This document shows positions 6,504-46,757 of a stretch of DNA of 64,000 nucleotides, in pieces. The DNA comes from an uncultured Bacteroidales bacterium (GTDB taxonomy: Bacteria > Bacteroidota > Bacteroidia > Bacteroidales > UBA3663). The notes under the pieces were generated by a model. That model ran no database searches and was not told where the DNA came from. It saw only the letters and a list, made by a program, of their open reading frames with translations. Made by a program: the position numbers and the translations under genes. Location of the stretch: positions 85,268 through 149,267 of the forward strand of contig CAJOLH010000003.1 in assembly GCA_905235375.1 (NCBI GenBank), written 5' to 3'. The stretch's first letter is position 1; the number at the start of each line of letters is the position of its first letter.

Positions 6504-6560
6504 AAGATGTAATTCCGTTTCGCTGTTTTCGTTGTTTTCGGAATTAAAATAATAATCGTG

Positions 6561-8096
6561 ATGAAAATAATCAACCGCTCCATCCTTTTCGTGCTTGCTT
6601 TGGGCAGCCTGCTCCTGATGTCTTCATGTCGTCGGGCAGGTTCGACCAATGCCAAGGTGACGTACGATTATCCCGCAACCCTCACCGAAGCGCAGCTCCT
6701 TGCCAATCCGAATCTTTTAGGTGGCATTTATGCGGCTTATCCTGGCGCATCCGAAGAGAGTCTTACTCCCGTTCCCTATGGCTACGAAGCCTTCTACATC
6801 AGCCACTACAATCGTCACGGCTCGCGTTACCAGCCCAACGACAGCCGTTATGCCAACACGCTGAAGCGGCTTCAGGACGGACATCAGCGCGGCGTACTCA
6901 CCGAATATGGCGAATCGCTCCTCCCTCGCATCCAGCTGCTATGCGACTCCTGCTTAGGGCATGGAGGGCAGCTCAGTTCAGTGGGTGTGGAACAACTCGT
7001 CGGCATCGGAGCACGAATGGGGCGCAATTTCCGCGAAGTCTTTGCCCAGACCATACCCGAAGACAAAACTGCTCCCGAGACAAAACGCCGCAAATTCGTC
7101 AGTGCTCGCGCCAGTGTCGTGCCACGTTGTGGAGCCTCGATGCGCGCTTTCTGTGCAGGTTTGGAATCGACTTACTTCGATTGTTTCCCTGCCCTTGAAC
7201 CCAATGCCGTAGTCAAGACCGACAGCGCTGATATGGCCTACATTGCTTACGACAGTCCCGAAATGAAAGCACTCAGCAGCCGAAATGCCTCCTGGCAGCA
7301 AGATTATGACAAATTCAAGGTGGAGCACGTCAATCGCGACCGTTTCATCCAGGCCATCTTCAAGGATGCTACAGGTGTCGATACCTTGAACATGGCAATC
7401 GACCTCTACTGGCTCGTCGTGGGTATGCAGGATGTCGATGTGCCGGGGTGTGACCTGAGCGATGTCTTCACGCCCGAGGAACTTCTTCAGTGCTACCAAT
7501 GCGTCAACTACCGCATGTATATCTGCAATGCCAACTGCCCCCGCAGCAACAACATTCCAGCCCAAAGTGCCTCTACCCTATTGAGGAATATCATCGAAAG
7601 CGCCGATGCCGCCATCGCCACCGATACCATCGCCGCGCATCTTCGCTTCGGTCACGACAGCAACCTCCTGCGCCTCCTCGCCCTGATGCACATCCACAAT
7701 GCCGCCAACAGCGAAAGCGATCCCTCAAAGTATTGGCAGGCATGGCAGGAATGTACCCTATCCCCAATGGCCGCGAATGTGCAACTCATCTTCTATCGCC
7801 CCTCAAACCCCTCAAACCCCTCAAACCCCTCAAACCTCTCAAACCCCTCAAACCCCTCAAACCTCTCAAACCCTTCAAACCCCTCAAGCCCTTCAAACCC
7901 TTCAAACCTCTCACCCCCCTCCACCCCTTCCCCCATCCTCGTCCGAATCCTCCTCAACGAACACGAGACCTTACTTGATGCCGACCTCCAGCCCACCGAT
8001 GGCTGTTTCTACCGATGGTCAGACCTCCGTTCCTTCTGGTCCACACAGATTGTGGATAACGGAGCAGATGGGATCGGAACGGTGAACATTCAGTAA
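6561..8096 (+). CDS. Histidine acid phosphatase (branch 2, MINPP-like), lipoprotein, carrying a PSN-repeat insertion
   Basis: RHGSRY catalytic motif and a downstream HD motif (RFGHDSNLL). Lipobox LLLMSSC. The ATG at 6561 was preferred to the GTG at 6558. Confidence 0.75.
   Translation: MKIINRSILFVLALGSLLLMSSCRRAGSTNAKVTYDYPATLTEAQLLANPNLLGGIYAAYPGASEESLTPVPYGYEAFYISHYNRHGSRYQPNDSRYANTLKRLQDGHQRGVLTEYGESLLPRIQLLCDSCLGHGGQLSSVGVEQLVGIGARMGRNFREVFAQTIPEDKTAPETKRRKFVSARASVVPRCGASMRAFCAGLESTYFDCFPALEPNAVVKTDSADMAYIAYDSPEMKALSSRNASWQQDYDKFKVEHVNRDRFIQAIFKDATGVDTLNMAIDLYWLVVGMQDVDVPGCDLSDVFTPEELLQCYQCVNYRMYICNANCPRSNNIPAQSASTLLRNIIESADAAIATDTIAAHLRFGHDSNLLRLLALMHIHNAANSESDPSKYWQAWQECTLSPMAANVQLIFYRPSNPSNPSNPSNLSNPSNPSNLSNPSNPSSPSNPSNLSPPSTPSPILVRILLNEHETLLDADLQPTDGCFYRWSDLRSFWSTQIVDNGADGIGTVNIQ
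7799..7917 (+). repeat. About 13 tandem 9-bp units (YYTCAAACC) in-frame in the phosphatase, encoding (P/L)SN repeats
   Basis: Direct reading: cccctcaaacccctcaaacc...cttcaaacctctcacccc. Translated as PSNPSNPSNPSNLSNPSNPSNLSNPSNPSSPSNPSNLSPP. Confidence 0.95.
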
Positions 8097-20613: not shown

Positions 20614-20700
20614 ATGGGGCCCACTCGCCCCATCCATCCTCCCTCCGTCGCCACCGTTCCCCTCGTCCCCCTTGTCCCCGTCGCAGCCAAGTTTGGCTGC
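20614..20700 (+). repeat. Composite intergenic repeat: hairpin GGATGGGGC-N6-GCCCCATCC, a 9-nt-periodic GTYCCCC tract, and the palindrome GCAGCCAAGTTTGGCTGC
   Basis: Direct reading. The palindrome lies at 20683-20700. GT starts fall at 20647, 20656, 20665 and 20674. Confidence 0.85.
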
Positions 20701-21955: not shown

Positions 21956-21974
21956 GCCCATCCCCATGTCACGT

Positions 21975-21994
21975 GGCAGCCAAGTTTGGCTGCC
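21975..21994 (+). repeat. Second copy of the GGCAGCCAAGTTTGGCTGCC palindrome
   Basis: Exact inverted repeat, 20 nt after the stop of the 406-aa gene, flanked by C-rich sequence. Confidence 0.9.
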
Positions 21995-25066: not shown

Positions 25067-25098
25067 AACGAGCCGGCTCACTCCGGCTCGTTTTTTTT
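25067..25098 (+). terminator. Rho-independent terminator after the 999-aa gene
   Basis: CGAGCCGG-CTCACT-CCGGCTCG stem-loop followed by T8 (25091-25098). Confidence 0.85.
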
Positions 25099-25118
25099 CA
25101 TGTCCCCGTGTCCCCTCC

Positions 25119-25176
25119 GCAGCCGTCCTTGGCTGTCCACTCCCCACCTGTCCCAGTCGCAGCCAAGTTTGGCTGC
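25119..25176 (+). repeat. Degenerate (GCAGCCGTCCTTGGCTG) plus exact (GCAGCCAAGTTTGGCTGC, 25159-25176) copies of the palindromic repeat, with GTCCCC flanks
   Basis: Direct reading. Confidence 0.85.
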
Positions 25177-25218
25177 AAAAAAATCCCCGAAAAATTTGCA
25201 TCTTTCCCCAAAATCCCC

Positions 25219-25226
25219 TATCTTTG
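25219..25226 (+). promoter_or_regulatory. Bacteroidota -7 box (TATCTTTG) for the PL1/CE8 gene
   Basis: Lies within the block AAAATCCCCTATCTTTGC (25210-25227), 45 nt upstream of the ATG at 25271. Confidence 0.55.
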
Positions 25227-25270
25227 CACCAGCTAATAAGCATTGTCAACTAACCACAACCCGCACCCCT

Positions 25271-28200
25271 ATGAAATCCACCCTTTTCTCCACCCTGCTC
25301 TCGGCCGTTGTCCTCCTGTGCACACTCTCAACGCCAGCCCTTGCCGAACGCCAGCTCGCCTTCCCCGGCGCCGAAGGCTACGGTCGCTACGTCACCGGCG
25401 GTCGTGGCGGCGAAGTCTGCTACGTCACCCGCAACGACGATTGCTCGGACAACAACCTCGTCGAAGGCACCCTCCGTTGGGCACTCAACCACGACAACGG
25501 CGGTCGTCCCCGCATCATTCTCTTCAACACCTCGGGCACCATCTACCTTGAGTCAAAGCTCAGGTTCCGCTTCCCCAACGTTTCCATCCTCGGCCAGTCG
25601 GCCCCCGGCGGAGGCATCTGCCTCACCGGCTACAACATGTATATCAACAACGACAACATCATCATCCGTTATGTGCGTTTCCGTGCCGGCGACATCCCCA
25701 ACAAGTCGATGACCGGCCTTGACATGGAGAACTGCGAAGGTGTCATCCTCGACCATTGCTCCATGACGTGGAGCATGGAGGAGTGCCTCACCGCCTACGA
25801 CAGCGACTCCACCACCGTCCAATGGTGCATCATCGGCGAAGGCCTCTACAACTCCAAGAACTCCAAGGGAGCACGTGCCTACGCCACCCAATGGGGAGGT
25901 GAGCACAGCACCATGCACCATACGCTCATCACCAACAGCCACTCGCGCGCCCCGCGCTTCAATGGCGTACGCTCCGTGTCGAACACCAAGGGCGAACACG
26001 ATTACCAGGTCGATTCTGAGTTTGCCAACAACGTCGTCTTCAACTGGAGCGGTGCTACCAACCAGTATGGTGGCGAATACGACAAGGCCACCGTTGAAGC
26101 CCCCGCATGGGCTAAGGATGACCCGGGCTACGATCGCGTATATCTCATCGGCAACTACTACCGCCCGGGTCCCGCCACGCAGCGCAACACCTCCAGCGCC
26201 CGCTACTGGTGTGCCCCCTCCACACCCTACGGCCAATGGTATCTTAGCGGAAACAAGTTCGAAGTGAACAGCCGTTGGGCACCCCAGAACAGCACCGTCT
26301 GGAGCGAAACCGAACTTAACAAGGTCAATGCCGACAACTACTACGGAGCCCAGTCGGGCAGCTCCAGCCGTGGCATCAACCTCACAGGCTCCAACTTCAC
26401 TACCTACACCCTCACCGAACTTCCATACGCCCTCAGCGGTCTCGAATATGAAAGTGCCGACGAAGCCTTTGCGAAAGTCACCAGCCGCGCCGGTGCATCC
26501 CTGCCGCGCTACGATGAGGTCGATCAGCGACTCCTCGACGAAGCCGCAGGCCGCATCGATCCGCAGTATGCCGGTGCTTCCATCCCCAACGAGAAAGGCA
26601 TCATCGATGCACCCGACGACGTCCAGCTCACCGAGCACGACACCTACGTCGTCGATGGTGTCACCTACACCAACTTCCCCTTCCTCGGGATGCGCGAGGG
26701 CGACCGCTACATCATCGATGCTGATTGCGACGGAATGCCCAACGCCTACGAGGACGAGATGGGCTTCAACAAGAACGACCCCACCGATGGCGCAGCCCTT
26801 GCTGCCAATGGCTACACCAACGTTGAGAACTACCTCAACGGCATTGCCGATGGCACTCTCCAGAAGTCGCGCTACGAGACCTCCGACTACGCCATCACAC
26901 CCGGCCATGACATGACCGGCGACGTCCACTACACATTCACCACAGGTCGCGCCGACGGCGAAGCGCCCCAAGGCGGCACCCTGCCCTTCGCCTCGCAGTA
27001 CGTCATTCCACAGAACACCTCCCTCTACCTCGATGGATACACGCTCATCGGCTGGACCAGCCAGGGAAAGACCTATTACATCGGCGATGTCGTCACTCTC
27101 GTCGAGGACATGACCTTCGCGCCCGTCTTCCAGAAGAACACCATCTCGATCGACGACCGTCGCCACGACACCCGCTGGACGTGGGACTTCACCCTACCTG
27201 CCGCCCCTAAGCTAAATGCAGAGGACGAAGGCATCTACGTCAATCAGAACGAGGTCGAAGGCATCTCCATCGACACCTATATCGAATATTCAGGCACCCG
27301 CGTCACCCTGCCCTTTCGCACAGGAGCCACAGCCTTTGTCAACGACACCAAGGTCGAATCCGATGTAAGCCCCGACTCCACCCTAGCCTTTATCACAGTG
27401 CCTACCGATGTCGCCCTACGCACCATCACGGTCCTCTTTCCCTACGTTGAGCCCTCCCATGCCCAATCGGGCAGCGTCACCATCAGCTGGCCCTGGAACA
27501 CGGGAGCCTACGTAGCTGCTGCCACCTTCAGCGACGATGACTCCGCCCTTGCCTTCGCCTCAGCCACCGCCACCTACAACGAGAATTATCTCAGCTATAT
27601 GTCCAAGACCGACAAGGTCGATAAGGAGAACTGGGTAGCCTTCCAACCTGCCGAACAGATCTCGACACCCGACCCCAACTACGTGGTTGAGTTCCGCGTC
27701 ATCCCCGCCGCAGGCGTCAGCTTCACCCCCACGTCCGTCAGCCTCAATGCCATGCGTTTTGGCACCGACGGTGGCAAGCTCGACATCTACGCCGTCTATG
27801 GCGACGAGGAAGTGCTCCTCGACGAAGCCCTCGTCCCAGGTCGCGACAATGCCGGCAAGACCCCCATCTACCACGACCTCTCAAACCCTTCAAACCTCTC
27901 AAACCCTTCAAACCTCTCAAACCTTTCAACCCTTTCAAACCCATTCTCCCTCCGCATCTACATCTACAGCCTCGGCAACTCCAAGCAGGTAGGATTCAAC
28001 CACATCACCATCAACGGGGACTGGAGCGGCAGCTCCTCAGCCGAGCAGTATAGCGTCAGTGCCGAAGCCCTGCCCGCCGAAGGAGGCTCAGTGACCCTCT
28101 CTCCCGCAGGCGGTCTTTATCGCGAAGGCACGGTCATCACCCTCAAAGCCACGCCCAACGAAGGCTACAACTTCGTAGGCTGGACCGACGAGGATGAGAA

Positions 28201-29563
28201 CCTTGTCAGCAAAGATCCCTCCTTCGAACACACCGTCACCTCTGACGCCTACTTCTTCGCCAACTTCAAGGCTTACAGCGCCTACGACGAGATCTTCGAG
28301 CACTGCCGTCCCTTCGATGCCGCAGTCCGTACCATCGACGAGCTTCTTGTCGCCCTCGATGCAGCAGCCAAGCGGCCCTCCCCCGACCAGCGCTATCGCA
28401 TCTTCCTTTTCGATGGCACCTACGACTTCGGCACCACTGCCCTCACCAAAGTGCCCGGCAACACCTCGCTCATCGGCGAAAGCATGGAGGGCGTGCTTCT
28501 CATGAACGATCCTGGCACCGTCACAAAGTACCAGGACGAGACGCCCGTGCTCTTCATCGACCAGAATCAGAACGGCGTCTATATGCAGGATCTCACCATC
28601 CGCCAGGCACGCGACTGGGACAGCGGCCGCTCCAAGGGCCAGGCCATCGCCCTGCGCCAGCGCGGCAAGCAGGCAATCTACAAGAACGTGCGTCTGCAGG
28701 GCGTGCAGGACACCTACTATCTCAACAAGGCCGATGCCACCGCCTACTTCGAGGATTGCGACATCGCCGGCGAAGTCGATTTCATCTATGGCGACGGCAC
28801 GATGTTCTTCCAACGCTGTACCCTCCGCCCCCTCAGTTCTGGAGCCTGCATCACCGCCCCCAACACCCAGCCCGCCTACAAGGGCATCGTCTTCGACCGC
28901 TGCACCATCGATGGTGCCGAAGGCTATCGTCTGGGGCGTCCGTGGGGCGACTCACCTGCCAGCACCTTCCTCCACACCACCATGCGCTCCCTGCCCAATG
29001 CCGCAGGTTGGGGCTCAATGACGTCAGGCCTCGTCGTTCGCTTCCATGAGTTCGACTCGTGCGATGCCGAAGGCAATCCGCTCGACCTCAGTGCTCGCTC
29101 CATCAGCGCCTGCAATGCCGCCGCTACCTCCGACCCCTGCGTCATCACCGAAGAGCAGGCTGCCGACTACACGCTCGACAAGGTGTTCCCCAACTGGTAC
29201 CCGCAGAGCTTCACCGTACAACTCAGCACCGAAATGGTAATCGCCGACCGCACGCTCACCTGGGAATGTCCCGACACGGCCTTAGGCTTCGTCGTATGCA
29301 AGGACGGTCATCCCGTAGCCTTCACCACTGACCTCTCCTACACCCTGCCCGACGATGACACCGCCAGCACTTATTCCCTGCGCGTCATCAACGAGATGGG
29401 CGGTCTTGGCCCAGCGTACAATGCCGTCACAGGCATTCGTCAGCTATTCACCGACCGCATCCCCACCGACACCCCCACCACCTTTCACAACCTCCTCGGC
29501 CAAAAAGTATCCTCCAATTACCGAGGGATTGTGATCAGCAGCAAGGGAATCATGATGAAATGA
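25271..29563 (+). CDS. Multidomain pectin-degrading enzyme (1430 aa): N-terminal PL1 pectate lyase, Ca-binding-like and Listeria-Bacteroides-type repeat domains, C-terminal CE8 pectin methylesterase, and a T9SS-like tail
   Basis: PL1 evidence: AFPGAEGYGRYVTGGRGG, DHCSMTWSMEE, HSRAPRFNGVR. CE8 evidence: GQAIALRQRG, LQGVQDTYYL, VDFIYGDG, YRLGRPWG. The GYNFVGWTDED and YTLIGWTSQG repeats are present. The C-terminus is FHNLLGQKVSSNYRGIVISSKGIMMK. The start is set at MKSTLFSTLLSAVVLLC. Confidence 0.88.
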   Translation: MKSTLFSTLLSAVVLLCTLSTPALAERQLAFPGAEGYGRYVTGGRGGEVCYVTRNDDCSDNNLVEGTLRWALNHDNGGRPRIILFNTSGTIYLESKLRFRFPNVSILGQSAPGGGICLTGYNMYINNDNIIIRYVRFRAGDIPNKSMTGLDMENCEGVILDHCSMTWSMEECLTAYDSDSTTVQWCIIGEGLYNSKNSKGARAYATQWGGEHSTMHHTLITNSHSRAPRFNGVRSVSNTKGEHDYQVDSEFANNVVFNWSGATNQYGGEYDKATVEAPAWAKDDPGYDRVYLIGNYYRPGPATQRNTSSARYWCAPSTPYGQWYLSGNKFEVNSRWAPQNSTVWSETELNKVNADNYYGAQSGSSSRGINLTGSNFTTYTLTELPYALSGLEYESADEAFAKVTSRAGASLPRYDEVDQRLLDEAAGRIDPQYAGASIPNEKGIIDAPDDVQLTEHDTYVVDGVTYTNFPFLGMREGDRYIIDADCDGMPNAYEDEMGFNKNDPTDGAALAANGYTNVENYLNGIADGTLQKSRYETSDYAITPGHDMTGDVHYTFTTGRADGEAPQGGTLPFASQYVIPQNTSLYLDGYTLIGWTSQGKTYYIGDVVTLVEDMTFAPVFQKNTISIDDRRHDTRWTWDFTLPAAPKLNAEDEGIYVNQNEVEGISIDTYIEYSGTRVTLPFRTGATAFVNDTKVESDVSPDSTLAFITVPTDVALRTITVLFPYVEPSHAQSGSVTISWPWNTGAYVAAATFSDDDSALAFASATATYNENYLSYMSKTDKVDKENWVAFQPAEQISTPDPNYVVEFRVIPAAGVSFTPTSVSLNAMRFGTDGGKLDIYAVYGDEEVLLDEALVPGRDNAGKTPIYHDLSNPSNLSNPSNLSNLSTLSNPFSLRIYIYSLGNSKQVGFNHITINGDWSGSSSAEQYSVSAEALPAEGGSVTLSPAGGLYREGTVITLKATPNEGYNFVGWTDEDENLVSKDPSFEHTVTSDAYFFANFKAYSAYDEIFEHCRPFDAAVRTIDELLVALDAAAKRPSPDQRYRIFLFDGTYDFGTTALTKVPGNTSLIGESMEGVLLMNDPGTVTKYQDETPVLFIDQNQNGVYMQDLTIRQARDWDSGRSKGQAIALRQRGKQAIYKNVRLQGVQDTYYLNKADATAYFEDCDIAGEVDFIYGDGTMFFQRCTLRPLSSGACITAPNTQPAYKGIVFDRCTIDGAEGYRLGRPWGDSPASTFLHTTMRSLPNAAGWGSMTSGLVVRFHEFDSCDAEGNPLDLSARSISACNAAATSDPCVITEEQAADYTLDKVFPNWYPQSFTVQLSTEMVIADRTLTWECPDTALGFVVCKDGHPVAFTTDLSYTLPDDDTASTYSLRVINEMGGLGPAYNAVTGIRQLFTDRIPTDTPTTFHNLLGQKVSSNYRGIVISSKGIMMK
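27879..27941 (+). repeat. Seven tandem 9-bp units (TCTCAAACC/CTTCAAACC) in-frame in the PL1/CE8 gene
   Basis: Direct reading. Encodes LSNPSNLSNPSNLSNLSTLSNP. It shares the identical 21-mer ACCTCTCAAACCCTTCAAACC with 7861-7881. Confidence 0.95.
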
Positions 29564-29659: not shown

Positions 29660-29887
29660 CGCCAGATAAGAAATCAAGACAAAAGTAAAACGCTGATTGG
29701 GAGTGGCAGACCGTGAGGTTAGCCACTTCTTCGTTTTGTAGGGGACTAAACAATTGGGACTTGGCAAGTCGCGACATTTAGCGCATCAATCGACAGCTGA
29801 GATGCTTGCTGACAGCGGGAATGCAGAAAACTTTCTTAATTCGAGCGGATGGATGACAAGCCCAGCATCATCAGGCAGACGAAAAAA

Positions 29888-30330
29888 AGCACTCTGACGC
29901 GCAACAGAGTGCTTCCTCATTTTGCGCAAGCATCGCGACGGGCGACAGAGTGCTTGCTCCTATAGAATAGTGTACTCTGACGCGTGTCAGAGTGCTTGCT
30001 TCTACAGAATAGAGCATCGCGACGGGCGACAGAGTGCTTGCTCCTATAGAATAGTGTACTCTGATGCATGACAGAATGCTTGCTCCTACAGAATAGAGCA
30101 TCAGGACGCGCGGCAAAGTGCTTCCGCGATTAGATAGAGCATTCTGACGCGCGACAGAATGCTTACTCCTAAGGAATAGAATACTCTGACGCGCGACAGA
30201 GTGCTTGCTCCTACGGAATGAAGCATCACGACGCGCGACAGAGTGCTTCCGCGATTGGATAGAGCATTATGACGCGCGACAAAATGCTTGCTCCTACGGA
30301 ATAAAGCATTATGACGCGCGACAGAGTGCT
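29888..30330. repeat. Tandem array of 11 degenerate 41-42-bp units, each carrying inverted arms (G[C/T]ACTCTG-ACGCGCGA-CAGAGTGC)
   Basis: CAGAGTGC-type arms start at 29905, 29946, 29988, 30030, 30072, 30114, 30155, 30197, 30239, 30280 and 30322. The sequence between the arms is also conserved. Confidence 0.9.
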
Positions 30331-30513
30331 ATATGACAAAATAGATGGCGAATCTGAGTTTGAAACCTGCTTTCCGAATAAAGATAAAACCTTTTCAAAG
30401 AATTTGGAGAAAAATGATGAATTCGAAGGACAAGAAGGAAACCGAACCGCAATGGATAGAATGGAACGGCAAACGAATCTTTGAAATAATCGTTTAGCCG
30501 TCCCATTAAAAGT

Positions 30514-33958: not shown

Positions 33959-35347
33959 ATGAACGAGATACTTACTACCCTCAACGGCTATCTATGGGGC
34001 TGGCCAATGATTGTACTGCTGGTAGGCACACACATCTTCCTGACCATACGACTGAAGTTCCCGCAGCGATACATTGGCAAAGCCATCCGACTGTCGTTCC
34101 AGCGTGATACGAACTCGAAGGGCGACGTTTCGCAATTCGCTGCTCTTGCCACCGGCCTTGCTGCGACTATTGGCACTGGCAACATCATCGGTGTTGCCAC
34201 GGCTGTCACCATGGGCGGACCGGGTGCCATCTTCTGGTGCTGGGTCACCGGTGTGTTCGGCATTGCCACCAAATACGCCGAAGGCCTGCTGTCGATCAAA
34301 TACCGCATCACGACGAAAGAAGGCAAGATGCTGGGCGGACCGATGTATGCCATCGAGCATGGCATGGGCTGCAAATGGCTCGCCATATTGTTCGCCCTCT
34401 TCGCTTTCCTTGCCACCTTCGGCATAGGCTGCACCATTCAGAGCAATGCCATCTCGACCATGGCGGCAGAGAGTTTCGGATGGGACACAACTTGGATAGG
34501 GCTCATCCTTGCCATCCTCATCGGCATGGTGGTCATCTTTGGCGTGAAAGGCATTGCCAAGGTCTGCGAACTCCTCGTTCCGTTCATGGCCATCTTCTAT
34601 GTTGCAGGTTGCATTGTCCTGCTGATTCACCAGAGCCAATATATCGGCGAAGCACTTGCGGTGATTCTGAAGAGTGCCTTCTCTGCGCAGGCGGCAACGG
34701 GCGGATTTGTCGGTTCGACCATCATGCTTTCGATGCGCTATGGTATAGCCCGTGGTCTCTTCAGCAACGAGGCGGGCCTGGGGTCCGCACCCATCGTAGC
34801 CGCTGCTGCCAAGACGAAGAATCCCGTGCGTCAGGCGCTGGTGTCGAGCACCTCGGTCTTTTGGGACACCGTCATCATCTGCGCACTCACAGGCCTCGTG
34901 CTTGTCACCACCATCCTGGCCGACAATGGTGTCGATTCGACGGCATCAGCGGCACTCACCCGACAGGCCTTCGAGCAGATTCCCATCTCCCTCGCCGGCT
35001 ATAATGTGGGCGGCGTTCTGCTGAGCATTGCCATCTTCACGTTCGCTTTCAGCACCATCTTAGGCTGGAGCTATTATGGGGAGAAGGCCTTGGAATACCT
35101 TTGCGGGAAGTACGGCAAGGCGGGCAGATACATCTTCCGCGTGCTCATCACAATCGGAACCTATTTTGGTGCAACAAATGCACTCGAAGCGGTGTGGAAC
35201 TTCGGTGATGCCGCCAATGCACTGATGGCCATCCCGAACCTTGTTTGCCTCCTCGTGCTGAGCGGTGTGCTCGTCAAGGAAACGAGGTACTACCTGTGGG
35301 AGGACCGTTTGGACGAAGAAGCCAGAGACCAGAACTCCACGAACTGA
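33959..35347 (+). CDS. Alanine/glycine:cation symporter (AGCS family)
   Basis: 462-aa polytopic protein. GDVSQFAALATGLAATIGTGNIIGVATAV and FSNEAGLGSAPI are AGCS signatures. Confidence 0.88.
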   Translation: MNEILTTLNGYLWGWPMIVLLVGTHIFLTIRLKFPQRYIGKAIRLSFQRDTNSKGDVSQFAALATGLAATIGTGNIIGVATAVTMGGPGAIFWCWVTGVFGIATKYAEGLLSIKYRITTKEGKMLGGPMYAIEHGMGCKWLAILFALFAFLATFGIGCTIQSNAISTMAAESFGWDTTWIGLILAILIGMVVIFGVKGIAKVCELLVPFMAIFYVAGCIVLLIHQSQYIGEALAVILKSAFSAQAATGGFVGSTIMLSMRYGIARGLFSNEAGLGSAPIVAAAAKTKNPVRQALVSSTSVFWDTVIICALTGLVLVTTILADNGVDSTASAALTRQAFEQIPISLAGYNVGGVLLSIAIFTFAFSTILGWSYYGEKALEYLCGKYGKAGRYIFRVLITIGTYFGATNALEAVWNFGDAANALMAIPNLVCLLVLSGVLVKETRYYLWEDRLDEEARDQNSTN

Positions 35348-36447
35348 CGTGCCACATCGTCCGCATTGTGATACTTGCGCACAAATGCCTGGCTGCTCGA
35401 CTGCAGTCGGGCTATTTTGTTTCTGTCGGTCAATGTTGTGCGCAGCACCTCGTAATTATGCACATCGTCGAACGGACGAAGGTTGATGATGCCGGATTCC
35501 TGTGGCCCGTCGATGAACCGCTGATATTCCGGCTCATAGCCGCTAATTACCACCTTCCCCTGCGCCATGCTTTCGAGGGCACCCATCGCTGGCGTAAAAC
35601 TGTAGAGCTGATCGACGACGACATCTGCCTCAGCCACAAGCCGCTGATACTCTTCGAAGGGAACCGACTCAATCTTGCGCAAGTCGATCACGTCGGGGAA
35701 CTCTTGGGAAAGTCTGTCGAACAGAGGTTCCAGTTGGTCGGTGCCCTTCATTTGTCCGCGAAGTTTCTGGGCTGCAAAGAGAAGGCGAAGGGGGGAAGAG
35801 GAGGAGGGAGTTGCGATGGCATCGCGACAGACGGAACGGGGGGAAGAGGGGGTGTTTACATCGATGGGCAAGGGGATGTAACGGAGGCGGGAGTGGAATT
35901 CGGGGGTGTCATAGACCTTCCAGTATTCGTAGAGGCATGGGACGAGACAATCGGCTTGCTGCATCACATATTGCGTCAATTCAGCTTTCGGTCCTTTGGT
36001 CCAAGCAGCGATACGACGACGATTCACGTCATGATCGATCACTCGGCCAGCGGCATAGAAGTCGGTATAAAGAAGATACTTGTCGTCCTGCATACGACTG
36101 ATGACGTAATAATCGTCGCCAAAGCAGCCCACCGACATGAGGTCATTGTTTCGCTTGAGATAGTCGAAGACCCACCTGTTCCATCGAGCCTTGACATCAA
36201 GGAAGATGGGATTGACGACCTGCACGACATCATACCCTCTCAGTTTGGGCAAAAGAGTGGCCAGCTTCGACAGATACATCAGGGAGCCGACAGGACCCGC
36301 CTTCGTGCGACGCAAATCGACATCGCGCGGATAATCCTTCCATCCATCACCATCGCTAATGAGCAGCACCTCATGCCCTGCGCGACGCAAGGCCTCGCAG
36401 AGTGTATGATGTACGTTGCTGTATTCGCCGAAGAGAAGGATGCGCAT
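35290..36447 (-). CDS. GT-B fold glycosyltransferase (group 1-like) carrying an in-frame repeat-element insertion
   Basis: MRILLFGEYSNVHHTLCEALRRAGHEVLLIS is a Rossmann-type N-terminus. The C-terminal half (KGTDQL...EADVVVDQLYSFTPAMGALESMAQGKVVISG) is typical of GT-B. The start is set at the ATG at 36447. The 3' end overlaps the convergent symporter gene by 58 nt. Confidence 0.7.
   Translation of the reverse strand: MRILLFGEYSNVHHTLCEALRRAGHEVLLISDGDGWKDYPRDVDLRRTKAGPVGSLMYLSKLATLLPKLRGYDVVQVVNPIFLDVKARWNRWVFDYLKRNNDLMSVGCFGDDYYVISRMQDDKYLLYTDFYAAGRVIDHDVNRRRIAAWTKGPKAELTQYVMQQADCLVPCLYEYWKVYDTPEFHSRLRYIPLPIDVNTPSSPRSVCRDAIATPSSSSPLRLLFAAQKLRGQMKGTDQLEPLFDRLSQEFPDVIDLRKIESVPFEEYQRLVAEADVVVDQLYSFTPAMGALESMAQGKVVISGYEPEYQRFIDGPQESGIINLRPFDDVHNYEVLRTTLTDRNKIARLQSSSQAFVRKYHNADDVARQFVEFWSLASSSKRSSHR
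35807..35841. repeat. Intragenic copy of the 35-nt palindromic repeat core (GGAGTTGCGATGGCATCGCGACAGACGGAACGGGG)
   Basis: 33/35 identical to 36512-36546. Flanked by G-rich tracts. Translated in-frame on the minus strand. Confidence 0.9.
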
Positions 36448-36584
36448 GGGGAGGAGGATGAGGGGGTTAAGGGCAGCCAAACATGGCTGCCATGGGGACA
36501 AGGGGGGGGATGGAGTTGCGATGGCATCGCAACAGACGAAACGGGGAACGGGAGGAACGGGGAACGGGAGGGACGAAAGTGGGC
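36448..36584. repeat. Composite intergenic repeat: palindrome GGCAGCCAAACATGGCTGCC (36472-36491), palindrome GTTGCGATGGCATCGCAAC (36515-36533), and GGAACGGG direct repeats
   Basis: Direct reading. It fills the whole space between the CotH-like stop and the GT start. Confidence 0.85.
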
Positions 36585-38072
36585 TTAGCGCTGGTGGCTG
36601 ATGACTCGCTTTCCCTGGATGAAGAGACCAATGGGGAGCTCGGTGGATGGGTTGAGCCTTCTTCCCAAAAGGTCGTAACAGGGAGATGGGGTTTGATACT
36701 TGTCTGTGGGGATGCTACGGATAGCATCGGGAGCAATATATCCATAGACCGAATCGAGATAAATGAGACGGTCGTGAATCCATCCGTAAATATACTCCTG
36801 TTCGAGGTCAGGGTCGCGAAGTTTGCAGTTGGAGTTGACCCATCGGTTCTGCTCACGTTCATACGCACCCGTCCGAACAAACAAGTCGAAGTAACGACCG
36901 AAGTAATTGCAAAGAGACTGCTCGGTCCAGAGACTGTCGCGCAATCCGGCATATCGGATTGACAAGGTATCGGCGTAACCCTTATAAAACTCCGACATAC
37001 GGGTGTTGAAATTGGTCTTGTTCCTCAATTCAGTGGTAGGATTGACGCGCACCCCAGTCACATCACGTCCCCACGACACGTCGAGGTCCCAAGGCGTGAT
37101 GCCCACACGCTGGTCGCTTGAACTTTGATCGTAGAACCAGCAATAGTAATTCTTGCCGACGTTGTCGTAGGCATAGAGCAAATCCAGCAGAAGCATGAAA
37201 TCGCAGAACACCGGAAGATCGAAATATTTGCCTACATAGTTGTAGAACGCCGTTCCCACATAGCCTGCAAGGTAATAGATATTCTTGCGCAAGGGTTCCC
37301 ATGTCCAGGGTTCGCCATCGTGGACATCGGGATATTCGCACTGAACGCCATCATAATAGGAGCTTTCCTCGTTAGGGACGTTCTGATTCCAATAAAAATA
37401 GGGCGTGCGCGTCTGGTTGCCATTGATGACCTTGTAGAGAAGTCCACGATGATGGGAGGTGCCATCCTCCTCGGTAACAAACTTCTTCAACTTGAGCTGT
37501 TTTCGATCAACGCGCTCCATCAAGCAGTAAAGTCCCATATACTGGCCGTTGGCATAAGCCTCGACATACTTGCCACGATAGCCATTGACGACCTTTGACT
37601 TCTCTTCCTGGTGATAGGGTGAATGAGAAAAATCGAGCCAAACATCCATCGAAACACGGTTGCGCATCTTAGAATGGTCGGGAGCCATGCCATCGAGAAT
37701 CCAGTTGTTGTCCTTTCGCATACCGAGGAAAGAGACATCAAGCGAATTGCCATCTTCGTCGAAAAACTTGAGCGCATAGTTCGGCTTGTCGTAGTCGAGT
37801 GACGTACCACCACGACGCCTAATGGTGCAACGGAACTTACGTGTGCTGTCGGTGCTGTGATAAACCACCTGACCCGGGATGAACGTATCGTGGTTGAGAA
37901 GAGCCTCGGTGTAGGTCAGTTCGATGACCGGAAGATCAGCCATCCAAGTAGTATCGACAGCTTGCCAGGCAGCAACAGTCTTCCCTTGAGCCATCACAGC
38001 CAAAGGAGACAGGCACACAGCTGACACCCAGGAAATCATTACAAGAAACAGCTTCAAAAAAGGAGTTTTCAT
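36585..38072 (-). CDS. CotH-like (atypical kinase fold) secreted protein
   Basis: Signal peptide MKTPFLKLFLVMISWVSAVC. The blocks DNNWILDGMAPDHSKMRNRVSMDVW and YVEAYANGQYMGLYCLMERVDRKQLKL resemble the CotH family. Confidence 0.65.
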   Translation of the reverse strand: MKTPFLKLFLVMISWVSAVCLSPLAVMAQGKTVAAWQAVDTTWMADLPVIELTYTEALLNHDTFIPGQVVYHSTDSTRKFRCTIRRRGGTSLDYDKPNYALKFFDEDGNSLDVSFLGMRKDNNWILDGMAPDHSKMRNRVSMDVWLDFSHSPYHQEEKSKVVNGYRGKYVEAYANGQYMGLYCLMERVDRKQLKLKKFVTEEDGTSHHRGLLYKVINGNQTRTPYFYWNQNVPNEESSYYDGVQCEYPDVHDGEPWTWEPLRKNIYYLAGYVGTAFYNYVGKYFDLPVFCDFMLLLDLLYAYDNVGKNYYCWFYDQSSSDQRVGITPWDLDVSWGRDVTGVRVNPTTELRNKTNFNTRMSEFYKGYADTLSIRYAGLRDSLWTEQSLCNYFGRYFDLFVRTGAYEREQNRWVNSNCKLRDPDLEQEYIYGWIHDRLIYLDSVYGYIAPDAIRSIPTDKYQTPSPCYDLLGRRLNPSTELPIGLFIQGKRVISHQR

Positions 38073-38096
38073 CGACGAACAAAGTATTTTTCGCTG

Positions 38097-38104
38097 CAAA
38101 GATA
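38097..38104 (-). promoter_or_regulatory. Bacteroidota -7 box (TATCTTTG on the minus strand) for the CotH-like gene
   Basis: CAAAGATA on the plus strand, 25 nt upstream of the ATG at 38072. Confidence 0.5.
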
Positions 38105-38147
38105 AGTAATTTTGTTCAAACCTTGTGCATCGAATCAATTTTTTTTG

Positions 38148-38155
38148 TAATTTTG
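38148..38155 (+). promoter_or_regulatory. Bacteroidota -7 box (TAATTTTG) for the GT2 gene
   Basis: TAnnTTTG match 21 nt upstream of the ATG at 38176. Confidence 0.45.
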
Positions 38156-38175
38156 CACCGTTAAAAGTTACAAAT

Positions 38176-39156
38176 ATGCTGCTAAGCTTCATTATTCCCG
38201 CCTATAATGTAGAGAAATACATCGTTGCATGCCTTGACTCCTGTCGGGCACAAGGCATCGATGACATGGAAATCATCGTAGTCGATGATGGCTCGACCGA
38301 TAGCACCCCTTCCCTACTCGACGAATATGCGCAGCAGCATCACTGCGTGAAAGTGTTCCACCAGAAGAACCAGGGACAAAGTGTGGCCCGCAACCTGGCC
38401 ATTGAGACGGCAATGGGTGAATACATCTACATGGTCGATGCCGATGACAAGATGATGGATGGCAAAGTGTTGCCTATCGACACGATGCGCAGCGGGAAAT
38501 ACGACATCATAGGCGTGCAGGTCATGTATCAGCTCGAAGATGGCTCACAACGTCCGTGGAGTCATCAGATGGAACGCTGGCCCTTCGACCACGAATACGC
38601 AACGGGCGCAGACTTTGTGCGAAGTCATAACATCGAGGGGCTGGTCTATGGATATCTGTTCAAGCGAAGCCTCTTTACCCAGAATCCGGCTTTGCGCTTC
38701 ACGCCCGGCATCTACCATCAGGACGAGGAACTTATCTTCAAGCTCTTCACGCTGGCAGGGCCTGTGGTCTATAAGCGCGGCTATACCTATTTATATTATG
38801 AACATTCGGGCAGCAGCATCAACACCCACACCGAAGCCCGTAAGCGCAAACTGATGGACGACACGATGACTATCATCAGCAATCTCATCCATTGGCGCGA
38901 TGAACACGGATTGGATGACATGATGCGATACAAATTGTCCTATTTGAGCATGGATGTTCTGCGCGTGCTCATCAGAAAGCAACATGATACGGACTATGCC
39001 CTGCAATGCATCGGAACATTGCGGCAACTGGGCCTTTACCCGCTGTCATGGATCAATGAACCGAAATACCTCGCAGTAAAACTGCTGACATGCACCGAGA
39101 GACTGGTCACATGGTGGATCAAGCATCCGCAGTTCAGCAAGAGAGTAGGATTCTGA
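38176..39156 (+). CDS. Family 2 glycosyltransferase
   Basis: MLLSFIIPAYNVEKYIVACLDSCRAQGIDDMEIIVVDDGSTD, followed by a DADD motif. Confidence 0.85.
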   Translation: MLLSFIIPAYNVEKYIVACLDSCRAQGIDDMEIIVVDDGSTDSTPSLLDEYAQQHHCVKVFHQKNQGQSVARNLAIETAMGEYIYMVDADDKMMDGKVLPIDTMRSGKYDIIGVQVMYQLEDGSQRPWSHQMERWPFDHEYATGADFVRSHNIEGLVYGYLFKRSLFTQNPALRFTPGIYHQDEELIFKLFTLAGPVVYKRGYTYLYYEHSGSSINTHTEARKRKLMDDTMTIISNLIHWRDEHGLDDMMRYKLSYLSMDVLRVLIRKQHDTDYALQCIGTLRQLGLYPLSWINEPKYLAVKLLTCTERLVTWWIKHPQFSKRVGF

Positions 39157-39170
39157 AGAGGTTATTTTTT

Positions 39171-39226
39171 CGGTATTACGGCATTACGGAATAACGTTAT
39201 TCCGGCATTTCGTTATAGCGAGACAA
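39171..39226. repeat. 8-bp-periodic CG-punctuated tract forming an imperfect palindrome of about 50 bp (core CGGAATAACGTTATTCCG) between convergent genes
   Basis: The units read cggtatta cggcatta cggaataa cgttattc cggcattt cgttatag. It could act as a bidirectional terminator. Confidence 0.6.
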
Positions 39227-39228
39227 TT

Positions 39229-40452
39229 TTATTTTGAAGCAAATTCCATCGTCCTCGCCGAACGATAAAGCACATCAAACTGCTTGGCAATGACTTCGGG
39301 GCTATGACGCTCGGCCACATATTGATGACGCTGAAGTGCCAACGTCAGGTCGGATAGCTGCACATCGGTCATCCGGCTCCGTGTCGCAATGAAGGCGGAC
39401 ATGACTTCCTGCAATTGAGATTTATCACCAGGTGCAACGGTTATGCCGCGATTCTGAGCCAACATAGAGGGAATAGTTCCGACCTTGGTAGCGATGACGG
39501 GAAGTCCGCAAGCGAGAGCTTCAAGTACCGAAACGGGCTGATTCTCGAAATTACTGAACATCAAGAGTGCATCATGCTGCTGGAGAGCCTCTGCCAAACC
39601 TTTACCTGTCTGCGACGGAAGGAATGACACCGTTTCGTCCAATCCAAGCTCCTTGCTGTAATCCATCAACTTAGGTTTATCGTTTCCCTCCCCAATGAAG
39701 TCGATGTGGAAGTCCTGACGCTGTTCCCTCAGCCTTGATGCGGTGCGAAGGATACCTGAGATGTTCTTCGAGTCATCGCGCATCCACGACACATGAACGA
39801 ATGTGACTTTGGGACCAGCGTTTACCTTTGGGGCAGGGACAAACATATCGGTATCGACAACATTGCCGATGCGCGTGTAATGACGATTGTCAAGCCCCCA
39901 CTTCTTCATATTTTGCTCAAGATTGAGGCTGACGGGACATACATAGGAAGCATCCTTTACGAAGCGTCGGCCCAGCCTGAGCTGCATAGCGCTGTCGGGA
40001 TAAGCCCCTTCACGGGCATAGCGTGACCAATGTTCGGTGATGATATATGGAATATGATGGAGTTTGAACAAGAGCCAGGGCAAACCTGCTGCACGCGTGA
40101 GAACATTGACATGGCACACCTCAGGCAGCTCCCCTTGCCAATAATTCTTCTTGATGAAACGATAGCCCTTGATGTAACCCATCATGAGCCAAAAGAGTCG
40201 CACAAGGCCTGTAATCAATGGTATCTCAAAACGAGTCTTGGGCACATAGACAAGAACCTCATGCAGTGATTTGATATTGCCTTCCGTCGGGCAAACTTCT
40301 ATCGACAAACCTCGGACAGCCAGATCGGTCTGCACCATCAACACAGCGACATCATTTAGACGAGCAACAGCCCTGGCGTGCTTCTGAATGAAGACACCAT
40401 CGCCCGCATCCTTGCGGTTAGGGTACCATGCTGTGGTGAAGAGAATGCGCAT
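39229..40452 (-). CDS. Family 4 (GT-B) glycosyltransferase
   Basis: MRILFTTAWYPNRKDAGDGVFIQKHA is the N-terminus. The C-terminal half has the EX7E-type region (FENQPVSVLEALACGLPVIATKVG). Confidence 0.85.
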   Translation of the reverse strand: MRILFTTAWYPNRKDAGDGVFIQKHARAVARLNDVAVLMVQTDLAVRGLSIEVCPTEGNIKSLHEVLVYVPKTRFEIPLITGLVRLFWLMMGYIKGYRFIKKNYWQGELPEVCHVNVLTRAAGLPWLLFKLHHIPYIITEHWSRYAREGAYPDSAMQLRLGRRFVKDASYVCPVSLNLEQNMKKWGLDNRHYTRIGNVVDTDMFVPAPKVNAGPKVTFVHVSWMRDDSKNISGILRTASRLREQRQDFHIDFIGEGNDKPKLMDYSKELGLDETVSFLPSQTGKGLAEALQQHDALLMFSNFENQPVSVLEALACGLPVIATKVGTIPSMLAQNRGITVAPGDKSQLQEVMSAFIATRSRMTDVQLSDLTLALQRHQYVAERHSPEVIAKQFDVLYRSARTMEFASK

Positions 40453-45083: not shown

Positions 45084-46757
45084 TTATCGCTTCAGCCAAC
45101 GCTCTGGATTGACAGCATTGGCATTCTGATAGATCCAGAATCGGATCTCGGCTCGATTGCTTTCAGGTTCGGTCTTCAAGGTGCCCAGCTGCTGACGCGT
45201 TGAAACTTTCTGTCCAGCTCGAACAAAAACATTCTGCAAGTTCATATAAACCGAACGATAATTGCCGTGTTGCACAATGATGGTCCATTCCTCGCTCGTC
45301 TTGAAACAGCTTTGAACGACACCCTCGTAGATAGCGCAGGCGTGCGCTCCGACACGGGTGCTAAGCACGATGCTCGAGTTACCGCTGCTTGGATTATAAT
45401 GATCGACAAAAGCAAACGTGGCATCCAAGGGATAAGGCAACTTTCCACGATTATCGGCAAAGCTGCCCGACAACCTGCGGAAAGCATCGTCCTTCTTCAC
45501 CGTTGCTGAATTGTGGGTCGTATTTCTGGAGGGAACGGTGCCAGACGACTTTGAACTCGAAGCGCCACCCGTCGCGCCCTTCGATGCTGTAGCAGCACCC
45601 GTGCTCTTGTTCTCGCCAGCCTTTTTGGCAGCAGCTTCCTTACGTCGGGCTTCTTCCTCGGCTTTCTTGCGCGCCTCCTCAGCCTTGCGTATCTCTTCCT
45701 CAATCATACGTTGAATGGTCTTCTCCACCTCTGCCATTCGCTTGCGGTCGCGATCCAATTCGGACTGCAGTTCCTTGTTGTGCTTCTGCAGATTGGCAAT
45801 TTGTGCCTGCTGCTCCTGCTGTCGCTGGTCGAGCGAAGCACGTTCCTTCTCCAGATCCTGCAGGACGTTCTCATGGTCGGCACGAGCCTGTTCGAGCGCC
45901 TGTTTGGCCTCGGTGGTGGCATTGCGCTGCTCCAACAGCAGTTCGGCCTGTCCCTTGCGCCACTCTCCATAACGACGCAGATAACGAACACGTCGCATAC
46001 CCTCGAGCAAATCCCTGGCCGAAACGACAAAGAGCAGTTCATCATAACCGCTACGCCACTTATAGAGATGACGCATTGCTGCGGCATACTTCTTCTGCGT
46101 AGCATTGTGCAGTTTCTCGAGGTCACGAATCTCGCGACGCAGACTGTCCTCTTCGGCAACGATGGACTCTATCTCACGATGCTTGCTGTTGATGAGCGCC
46201 TGACGTTTACGTATCTCGTCGGCACGAATCTGGATATCACGATTCTGGCTCTTGAGCGAATTATTGTTGTTGCTGATGAGTTTCTCGGTATCCTTTATCT
46301 GTCGCTGCAGATCCCGCTGCTGCTTTTCGTAAGCCTGACGACTCATTGGCTTGCTTTTCTTCTTGCTGCTTGTCGAACTCTGCGAGCCCGTCCTCTTGGA
46401 GGAAGACTGCGAAGACTTCTTTGCCGTGCTCTGAGCAGGTTTCTTCTGCGTAGTTTGTGCAGGTTTCTTCTGTGTGGTCTGCGCGGGCTTCTTCTGCGTG
46501 GTCTGTGCAGGCTTTTTCTGTGTGGTCTGCGCGGGCTTTTTCTGCGTGGTCTGCGCGGGCTTCTTCTGCGTGGTCTGTGCGGGCTTCTTCTGCGTGGTCT
46601 GTGCGGGCTTCTTCTGCGTGGTCTGTGCGGGCTTCTTCTGCGTGGTAGTCTTCGTCGTTGTGGACTTCTGCTGAGCAAAACCGACAACACCATCGGGACC
46701 TGCCATCAGCAAGACCGAAAAGACAACGACCACAAAATATCGAAAGAAACGCTTCAT
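45084..46757 (-). CDS. M23-family peptidoglycan endopeptidase / EnvC-like protein with a coiled coil and a QKKPAQTT repeat tract
   Basis: Signal peptide, then 9 copies of QKKPAQTT, a long coiled coil, and a C-terminal LytM-like domain (GVVQSCF...IVQHGNYRSVYMNLQNVFVRAGQKVSTRQQLG). The ATG at 46757 was preferred to the GTG at 46766. Confidence 0.8.
   Translation of the reverse strand: MKRFFRYFVVVVFSVLLMAGPDGVVGFAQQKSTTTKTTTQKKPAQTTQKKPAQTTQKKPAQTTQKKPAQTTQKKPAQTTQKKPAQTTQKKPAQTTQKKPAQTTQKKPAQSTAKKSSQSSSKRTGSQSSTSSKKKSKPMSRQAYEKQQRDLQRQIKDTEKLISNNNNSLKSQNRDIQIRADEIRKRQALINSKHREIESIVAEEDSLRREIRDLEKLHNATQKKYAAAMRHLYKWRSGYDELLFVVSARDLLEGMRRVRYLRRYGEWRKGQAELLLEQRNATTEAKQALEQARADHENVLQDLEKERASLDQRQQEQQAQIANLQKHNKELQSELDRDRKRMAEVEKTIQRMIEEEIRKAEEARKKAEEEARRKEAAAKKAGENKSTGAATASKGATGGASSSKSSGTVPSRNTTHNSATVKKDDAFRRLSGSFADNRGKLPYPLDATFAFVDHYNPSSGNSSIVLSTRVGAHACAIYEGVVQSCFKTSEEWTIIVQHGNYRSVYMNLQNVFVRAGQKVSTRQQLGTLKTEPESNRAEIRFWIYQNANAVNPERWLKR
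46431..46646. repeat. Nine tandem 24-bp units encoding QKKPAQTT
   Basis: Direct reading. The units differ only at synonymous positions (CTGTGC/CTGCGC, GGG/AGG, CTTCTT/CTTTTT on the plus strand). Confidence 0.9.

Follow-up and report, generated by a model that had tools for sequence, protein, structure and literature searches.

The Rickettsia palindromic elements (RPEs) were reportedly described by Ogata et al. in 2000. They are summarised by Di Nocera et al. (2013; PMC3733652), who describe the CGTC and GTAG repetitive extragenic palindromes (REPs) as short stem-loops with 8-9-bp stems and an unpaired tag, located after genes. These tagged REPs exist in tens to hundreds of copies, form subfamilies that differ in the stem and lie mostly between unidirectional or convergent open reading frames (ORFs); intragenic copies have been reported, including in tRNA synthetase genes (PMC3733652). 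CGTC REPs have no dedicated transposase and are reported in five phyla, including Bacteroidetes; their further details are the tag CGTC (or TGTC/CCTC), a loop of 4-5 nt, AT first pairs, a CCA tail and head-to-head dimers, and the spread of tagged REPs lacking RAYT is an open question (PMC3733652). Here we analysed a 64-kb stretch of contig CAJOLH010000003.1 from an uncultured Bacteroidales bacterium (the window, meaning the whole stretch), in which a 28-nt hairpin element, H1, occurs twice: in the spacer upstream of a glycosyltransferase (GT) gene and in frame within that gene. H1 is probably a dispersed, non-autonomous hairpin repeat of the REP/RPE kind in ruminant-gut Prevotellaceae, tolerated at permissive coding sites. 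The first-pass annotation of the window had proposed that a mobile or recombining palindromic element occupies both coding and non-coding DNA; at least 113 H1 sites in Bacteroidales loci and 22 viral stretches support this proposal, and the distribution of H1, its subfamily structure and one filled/empty site suggest that it is mobile.

The two window copies and the H1 family

That annotation had placed copies of a 35-nt core inside the GT coding sequence and upstream of it. The core has exactly two matches in the window, at 35807-35841 and 36512-36546 (+ strand), where shuffled sequences give an expectation of 0. The copies agree at 33/35 positions and can be aligned over 42 nt at 90% identity. 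Read on the minus strand, the H1 unit is 28 nt long, a 9-nt unpaired leader followed by a 19-nt palindrome, GTTGCGATG-N-CATCGCAAC (GTTGCGATG-G-CATCGCAAC in the window). The palindrome with 9-bp arms, also annotated from the letters, is perfect in the spacer copy (GTTGCGATGGCATCGCAAC, 36515-36533) and has one arm mismatch in the coding copy (35810-35828, ...CGCGAC). Both copies stand between G-rich tracts, C-rich when read on the coding strand, again as annotated. The minus-strand ORF 35290..36447 passes through H1 without a frame break (...IDVNTPSSPRSVCRDAIATPSSSSPLRLLFAAQ... / ...PSSPRSVCRDAIATPSSSSP...), and the coding copy is translated R-S-V-C-R-D-A-I-A-T.

H1 is a multi-copy family with members both between and inside genes. 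A scan for exact GTTGCGATGSCATCGCRAC, with one genome per GTDB species, gave at least 115 stretches. About a dozen of the palindrome matches listed fall in unrelated phyla, which is the chance level; the rest come from rumen Prevotellaceae/Bacteroidales metagenome-assembled genomes (MAGs). Palindrome and leader occur together at no fewer than 113 sites in Bacteroidales loci; the site statistics given here (n=113) refer to these Bacteroidales sites among the matches listed. They represent at least 48 species-representative MAGs of ruminant-gut Prevotellaceae/Bacteroidales, counted among the first 80 loci, and such MAGs often have several H1-bearing contigs each. The viral stretches, which carry H1 with its leader, are from IMG/VR contigs, and a BLAST search with the 39-nt palindrome against GenBank phages gave no match. 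Beyond the ascertained sites, 33 H1 matches with at most 3 mismatches were found in 767 kb against 0 in shuffles, and the density of H1-like sequences in H1-bearing loci is about one per 25-45 kb.

Aligning the 113 sites delimits the unit: conservation sets in exactly 9 nt ahead of the palindrome and reaches no further than its end. The leader consensus is GTTCcGTaT (general form GTYCNGTNT), and only the positions GT.C.GT.T are conserved. The leader is one-sided in 82/113 copies and present on both sides in 18/113, which gives a palindrome of 37-39 nt. When the copies are placed in leader orientation, 88 have C and 25 have G at the centre, and because of this asymmetry the copies are directional. 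Most variants are perfect palindromes in which both arms have changed together, with stems such as GTTGCGTTG-N-CAACGCAAC (at least 8 loci), GCTGCGATGGTATCGCAGC and GTTGCGACTCAGTCGCAAC; since the changes are paired and the leader is retained, these variants form subfamilies.

Intergenic copies lie in short spacers, within mosaics with other repeat modules, and crude gene calls place 45 of them in unidirectional, 11 in convergent and 3 in divergent contexts. Where copies are clustered, they stand head-to-tail (L035, L054, L102, L110, L091). An intergenic satellite at 4997-5681 of L035 consists of three 200-280-nt units, each made of an 18-nt C-rich repeat, H1 and a GC-rich segment. Positions 353-398 of L102, a Prevotellaceae MAG locus, give an Rfam gathering-level match to the Acido-Lenti-1 small RNA, unrelated to H1.

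Pfam matches for the host GT of the window are weak. Its AlphaFold model has a mean predicted local distance difference test (pLDDT) score of 91 and a predicted template-modelling (pTM) score of 0.89, and the best Foldseek matches of this model are PimA, MshA and BshA. As modelled, the product is a GT-B/GT4 glycosyltransferase with two Rossmann-like halves joined by a linker. The sole internal segment with pLDDT below 50, residues 202-212 (SPRSVCRDAIA), coincides with H1; it follows the last N-domain elements and precedes the first C-domain strand. The earlier claim that the element is translated in frame between the Rossmann halves thus agrees with both the ORF and the model, in which it appears as a disordered interdomain loop. 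Both halves have a ratio of nonsynonymous to synonymous divergence (dN/dS) of 0.045-0.12 and are under strong purifying selection; the gene is therefore functional and no pseudogene. A fusion of two half-GT genes was ruled out, as each remote homologue is one single protein whose linker is short. Two further features of this gene may be recorded. A 447-aa ORF (35245-36588, +) runs antisense to the entire GT gene and both H1 copies; it exceeds the real gene in length and could mislead gene callers. At its 3' end, the GT gene shares 58 nt (35290-35347) with a convergent Na+/alanine symporter gene.

The GT start codon, the ATG at 36447 (MRILLFGEY), is common to all orthologues in the alignment, and with this true start the spacer copy of H1 is intergenic, 68 nt upstream. 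It lies in a 137-nt mosaic spacer (36448-36584) between the stop codon of an upstream CotH-family gene and the GT ATG. On the coding strand, the order is a C-rich CCGTTCC tract, H1 (GTTTCGTCT + GTTGCGATGCCATCGCAAC), a C-run, a second hairpin repeat (H2) and CTTAACCCCC. Tandemised leaders akin to the CCGTTCC tract are also found in L051, L057, L068 and L102.

Copies inside genes and at hot spots

About a third of the H1 sites (42-44/113) lie deep in long ORFs with coding-like codon usage. The gene calls of this census are crude; a Pfam-checked subset supports them, with host protein and frame confirmed in 17/20 coding copies tested. The hosts, identified by Pfam or otherwise, include valyl- and histidyl-tRNA synthetases (ValRS, HisRS), aspartokinase-homoserine dehydrogenase (ThrA), SufS, MnmG, GH2 and GH31 enzymes, an M24 peptidase, a PreA-like oxidoreductase, a DegT aminotransferase, phage ERF, Mu-F and endolysin proteins, nonribosomal peptide synthetase (NRPS)-like proteins with several copies each, and one ABC ATPase in six MAGs. 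None of the six frames of the palindrome contains a stop codon. Coding copies read (S)VCCD[A/G]IAT(NGT) in 30 cases and VAM[A/P]SQQT(ER) in 12, and the basic LLRCHRNR in none; the chance of this third frame being empty is (2/3)^42 = 4e-8. Measured against solved homologues, the proteins are longer at H1 by 8 residues in MnmG, 9 in HisRS, 12 in SufS, 8 in aspartokinase and 11 in the DegT aminotransferase, so that the net insertions in these five hosts are 8-12 residues, in loops or linkers. In the NRPS-like genes of L032, L081 and L093, there are three or four H1-type cassettes per gene, in both usable frames (VQSVAMPSQQ, SSVCCDAIATN, SPVCCVDNAT, GSVCCAANAT), and the L081 gene additionally has a 9-nt repeat (NPSNLSNPSNSSNP).

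The GT linker itself is replaced rapidly. In 34 clusters of GT orthologues (at least 80% identity), it is always assembled from the set of C-rich modules that also occurs between genes: H1 in 3 clusters, H2 (CPRGSRPWLP) in about 10 together with decayed versions, and, as a third module type, the 9-nt repeat CCYYTCAAA, read SNPSNLSN, in 13 of the 34. The orthologue DNA at this position reads H1 plus an H2-derived segment in L074, a GC-rich segment plus H1 in L197, the same GC-rich segment plus H2 in L198, the 9-nt repeat in L199 and H2 in L200. The GT genes of L197 to L200 have different cassettes at a synonymous divergence (dS) of merely 0.12-0.19. The CotH-GT spacers of five orthologous loci are mosaic too. 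In GT homologues that share 76% identity or less, the linker is an ordinary hydrophilic one of 13-47 residues with no H1, H2 or 9-nt module, so the segment is absent from them; close orthologues have H1 or other intergenic repeat modules there. Matches listed from a metagenome scan with the GT alignment have 37-43% identity and serve as outgroups, not for module boundaries. In homologues P0080-P0099 (55-60% identity), the linkers consist of short repeats peculiar to those lineages (EKGKGKNRENSA, IEPLEGKKEKGTGQE...), and this GT protein may therefore generally build its linker from simple repeats that are specific to the lineage.

A similar exchange is seen in MnmG. Orthologues at 89-91% identity, including that of Segatella bryantii, all have inserts at two surface loops. 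At these hot spots (L201-L203, L043, L099), found in Segatella bryantii-like lineages, lineage-specific perfect hairpins of similar length or decayed remnants stand behind a conserved GGTTCNGT; among them are H1, GTTGCGTTGTCAACGCAAC, CTGCTGTAGTACAGCAG, CCTGACGA..TCGTCAG and CTGAGG..CCTCAG. One operon spacer in phages gives the filled and empty forms of a site. When filled, the spacer has 39 nt and reads TAA-CGAG-[palindrome + AAACAAAAC]-AAGAAGC-ATG; relatives at 77% identity show the empty version of 10 nt, TAG-AGAATAGCCA-ATG, and another relative has a paired-change hairpin variant at that site.

Other repeats of the window are listed with the main features in Table 1. H2 is a hairpin repeat family of its own (TGTCCCCGT-GGCAGCC-N6-GGCTGCC), with a leader that resembles the H1 leader and a core in the CotH-GT spacer of TTGTCCCC..GGCAGCC-ATGTTT-GGCTGCC. 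The window contains five H2 copies, each located after a gene; one adjoins a canonical terminator at 25067-25100. The two in-frame (CCYYTCAAA)n arrays of the window are both translated as (P/L)SN repeats and located at domain boundaries. An intergenic family of 8-nt units (CGGAATAA/CGGTATTA) occupies 886-979 and 39171-39232, the latter with the palindrome CGGAATAACGTTATTCCG at 39187-39204, directly after a GT2 gene. At 46359-46670, a 24-nt unit is repeated in tandem about 13 times, and 42/84-nt repeats with internal inverted repeats lie at 29883-30373.

Table 1. Features of the window discussed in the text, with their coordinates
Feature	Position	Strand	Content or basis
H1, coding copy	35810..35837	minus	leader GTTCCGTCT (35837 to 35829), palindrome 35828 to 35810
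H1, spacer copy	36515..36542	minus	leader GTTTCGTCT + perfect 19-nt palindrome GTTGCGATGCCATCGCAAC
GT gene, GT-B (GT4-like), 385 aa, intact	35290..36447	minus	Pfam, AlphaFold, Foldseek, dN/dS
Hypervariable GT interdomain linker, residues 195-222, C-rich sequence hosting H1	35782..35865	minus	alignment, orthologue DNA, structure
H2 module of the spacer	36464..36513	minus	TTGTCCCC-ATGGCAGCC-ATGTTT-GGCTGCC-CTTAACCCC
C-rich tract of reiterated leader-like CCGTTCC motifs, CotH stop to H1	36543..36584	minus	direct reading
CotH-family gene, upstream, co-directional	36585..38192	minus	
H2 family copy, 3' of gene	20667..20700	+	
Further H2 copies	21960-21993, 25103-25136, 25143-25176		
9-nt tandem repeat (CCYYTCAAA)n	7789..7961	+	in frame as (P/L)SN repeats in histidine-phosphatase-family gene (6558..8096)
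Second (CCYYTCAAA)n array	27867..27976	+	in frame in 1487-aa pectinesterase-domain protein (ORF 25100..29563), LSNPSNLSNPSN...

Interpretations and a possible mechanism

Several results weigh against a simple dispersed repeat that inserts and is tolerated. In an ABC ATPase (L005/L027/L028/L036/L048/L077), H1 lies in native positions with no length change, and its peptide GTVCCDGIAT coincides with the conserved G-x-[IV]-x-x-D-G. In a phage lipoprotein family (L226-L279), of which only two members have perfect H1 DNA, H1 replaces native residues, with the length constant down to 37% identity. The native peptide at the H1 site is already similar to the H1 translation in both cases. These two in-place cases are not what simple insertion would predict. 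The linker H1 of the window and that of L197 differ at 2/28 positions at a dS of 0.6 (P about 5e-5), and the copies are therefore homogenised or constrained, by concerted evolution or selection. No transposase-like family recurs within 2.5 kb of H1 in the 113 loci, orthologous host genes aside, and target-site duplications of at least 3 nt are not above the null at H1 sites. Exact copies all come from MAGs or viral contigs, with no isolate genome among the matches listed, and the 64-kb window holds 2 copies only.

Some of these observations would be expected if H1 were a sequence-specific recognition site, either a dyad-symmetric binding site for a nucleoid, partition or regulatory protein or an uptake-like motif, which selection or transmission bias, and not transposition, would create and keep wherever the local sequence permits. 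The in-place cases, the conservation above neutral expectation, the perfect dyad with a free centre base and the presence of H1 in phages of the same hosts all fit such a site. However, the variants are paired, structure-preserving changes in recurrent subfamilies rather than a scatter around one motif, the leader is one-sided and the centre base asymmetric. Moreover, the density is just one per 25-45 kb, and adding 8-12 residues to loops of MnmG, HisRS, SufS and ThrA would be odd when spacers are available. We therefore regard a recognition site as unlikely. We know of no sequence fit of H1 to attC, dif or parS.

We give little credence to the idea that nothing moves, and that template switching at quasi-palindromes creates and perfects hairpins in situ, independently in permissive loops and spacers. 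It would account for the different perfect hairpins that each lineage has in orthologous MnmG loops, and for the paired changes at orthologous sites of the phage lipoprotein and the phage spacer, but it cannot explain how about 50 species come to share one 28-nt sequence, unpaired leader included, at more than 100 unrelated sites. Template switching may nevertheless help to keep the H1 arms complementary.

Another idea is that the hairpins act on RNA, as a stabiliser, pause site or attenuator of the CotH-GT operon, with the coding copy as an internal regulator of the GT mRNA. Copies are chiefly in transcribed spacers of co-directional genes, and the leader is biased to the sense strand, 23:12 between co-directional genes and 22:8 inside genes. 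The minimum free energy fold of the spacer RNA consists of exactly two strong hairpins, H1 and H2 (z = -6.1). However, neither of them is followed by a U-run, C-rich sequence being found there instead, which rules out intrinsic terminator function. Rfam has no family at H1 (window region at E<=1; 16 H1-bearing loci at gathering thresholds). The coding copy folds weakly (-5.6 kcal/mol) because of its stem-breaking arm mismatch, one third of the copies are antisense, and orthologues substitute unrelated modules. RNA-level control thus seems very unlikely as the reason for H1. Overall, the window has 13 hairpins where about 7 are expected, a modest excess for which H1, H2 and terminators account; coding hairpins therefore do not saturate this genome.

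The proximity of the spacer and linker copies, 705 nt apart and 33/35 identical, could point to a private local duplication or gene conversion, yet H1 is a many-species family, and L074 and L197 have H1 in the linker without H1 in the spacer, so that such an event is extremely improbable. Chance similarity of low-complexity DNA or an assembly artefact, which the C-rich flanks and the purely metagenomic sources might evoke, can be dismissed as negligible: shuffles expect 0 matches, H1 occupies orthologous positions in independent assemblies from different studies (the ABC ATPase, 6 MAGs), and the H1-bearing ORFs are intact.

If H1 is a dispersed hairpin repeat, new copies would be templated from existing copies by machinery acting in trans. 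One option would be a single-strand, hairpin-recognising insertion of the HUH/RAYT type, which fits the hairpin with its unpaired tag and the missing duplication, following the logic of REP/RAYT and IS200/IS605. A second would be short-patch templated conversion, which would also account for the in-place cases and the concerted conservation. In either case, copies would last only where they are harmless. Most simply, the peptide encoded by H1 in the GT would be a neutral passenger and no adaptation, and the spacer and linker copies of the window would be two family members with no private duplication between them.

A bolder proposal, which we put forward tentatively and with more doubt than belief, is that a hairpin-guided, transposase-free copy-or-convert process is active in rumen Prevotellaceae and their phages. 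Such a process would write leader-plus-hairpin cassettes, would swap perfect hairpins at fixed hot spots (the GT linker, the two MnmG loops and operon spacers) faster than synonymous sites diverge, and would sometimes overwrite native codons without a change in length. If true, this would be a new mechanism for the localised hypervariation of protein loops and spacers, beyond another REP family.

From a biological perspective, the H1 copies widen the range of selfish palindromes inside genes: beyond Rickettsia and a few species rich in REPs, it now includes gut anaerobes that are abundant and free-living, as well as their phages, with copies in essential genes (MnmG, HisRS, ValRS, SufS). They also indicate that linkers can be built out of intergenic repeat modules, and they provide a natural map of insertion-tolerant sites across many enzyme folds. 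H1 insertions produce hypervariable loops and indels in conserved single-copy genes, which affects alignment, phylogenomics and strain typing of rumen Prevotellaceae. The thousands of rumen Prevotella MAGs, together with strain-resolved metagenomes, offer many natural filled/empty comparisons on how REPs spread without RAYT.

Comparison with known systems

Several well-known families share part of this picture. The bacterial interspersed mosaic elements (BIMEs) of E. coli are mosaics of REPs, and S. pneumoniae has BOX elements. The spacers and linkers described here are likewise mosaics, of H1, H2, the 9-nt repeat and C-rich tracts in variable order and number; these modules are unrelated in sequence to BIME and BOX, and the mosaics here are also translated inside genes. 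The DNA uptake sequences (USS/DUS) occur about once per kb. Like them, H1 is a short specific sequence in coding and non-coding DNA, with a frame bias, a location at poorly constrained protein positions and sometimes no length change; unlike them, it has a density 25-45 times lower, compensatory variants and a hairpin with an unpaired leader. Miniature inverted-repeat transposable elements (MITEs), such as the Correia elements of Neisseria and the MITEs of P. gingivalis with internal minisatellites, are 70-300 bp long. H1 resembles them in being non-autonomous, dispersed and sometimes combined with tandem repeats; it differs in having no terminal inverted repeats apart from the hairpin, no target-site duplication and a length several times shorter.

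The Rickettsia RPEs are similar in behaviour. Both RPEs and H1 are dispersed palindromes in non-coding DNA and in frame in functional genes, their peptides lie in loops or linkers, and no transposase is known for either. At 28-39 nt, H1 is four to five times shorter than RPE-1 (roughly 100-150 bp) and is unrelated to RPEs in sequence; its hosts are Bacteroidota, free-living gut anaerobes, and phages. It is also set apart from RPEs by its conserved leader, which is unpaired, by its arrangement in head-to-tail arrays and by hot spots at which one hairpin replaces another.

The tagged REPs are closer in structure. H1 shares with them the stem of 8-9 bp, the unpaired tag at one end, the unidirectional or convergent spacers, the stem subfamilies, a family size of tens to hundreds of copies and the presence of some units inside genes, tRNA synthetase genes included. 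The window copies read CGTC-T-stem; in the family consensus, GTTCcGTaT, the GT alone is invariant where the two tags correspond. H1 has a loop of 1-3 nt and G-C and T-A as first pairs, the tail is only weakly A/C-rich, head-to-head dimers are not the rule, and the intragenic fraction, about one third, is much higher. Because several defining details fail, we file H1 as a new family of the general tagged-REP kind and not as a CGTC REP.

The first-pass annotation had supposed that nothing alike was described for Bacteroidota. That was partly right: our literature search found no description of the H1 sequence or of in-frame palindromes in Prevotellaceae, but intragenic REPs and CGTC REPs in Bacteroidetes were already reported (PMC3733652). 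Intragenic palindromes of this sort are known from the Rickettsia RPEs and from tagged REPs in Opitutus, and H1 adds a new family of that kind. Structurally, H1 is closest to the tagged REPs, closer than to RPEs, and functionally it behaves like the RPEs of Rickettsia.

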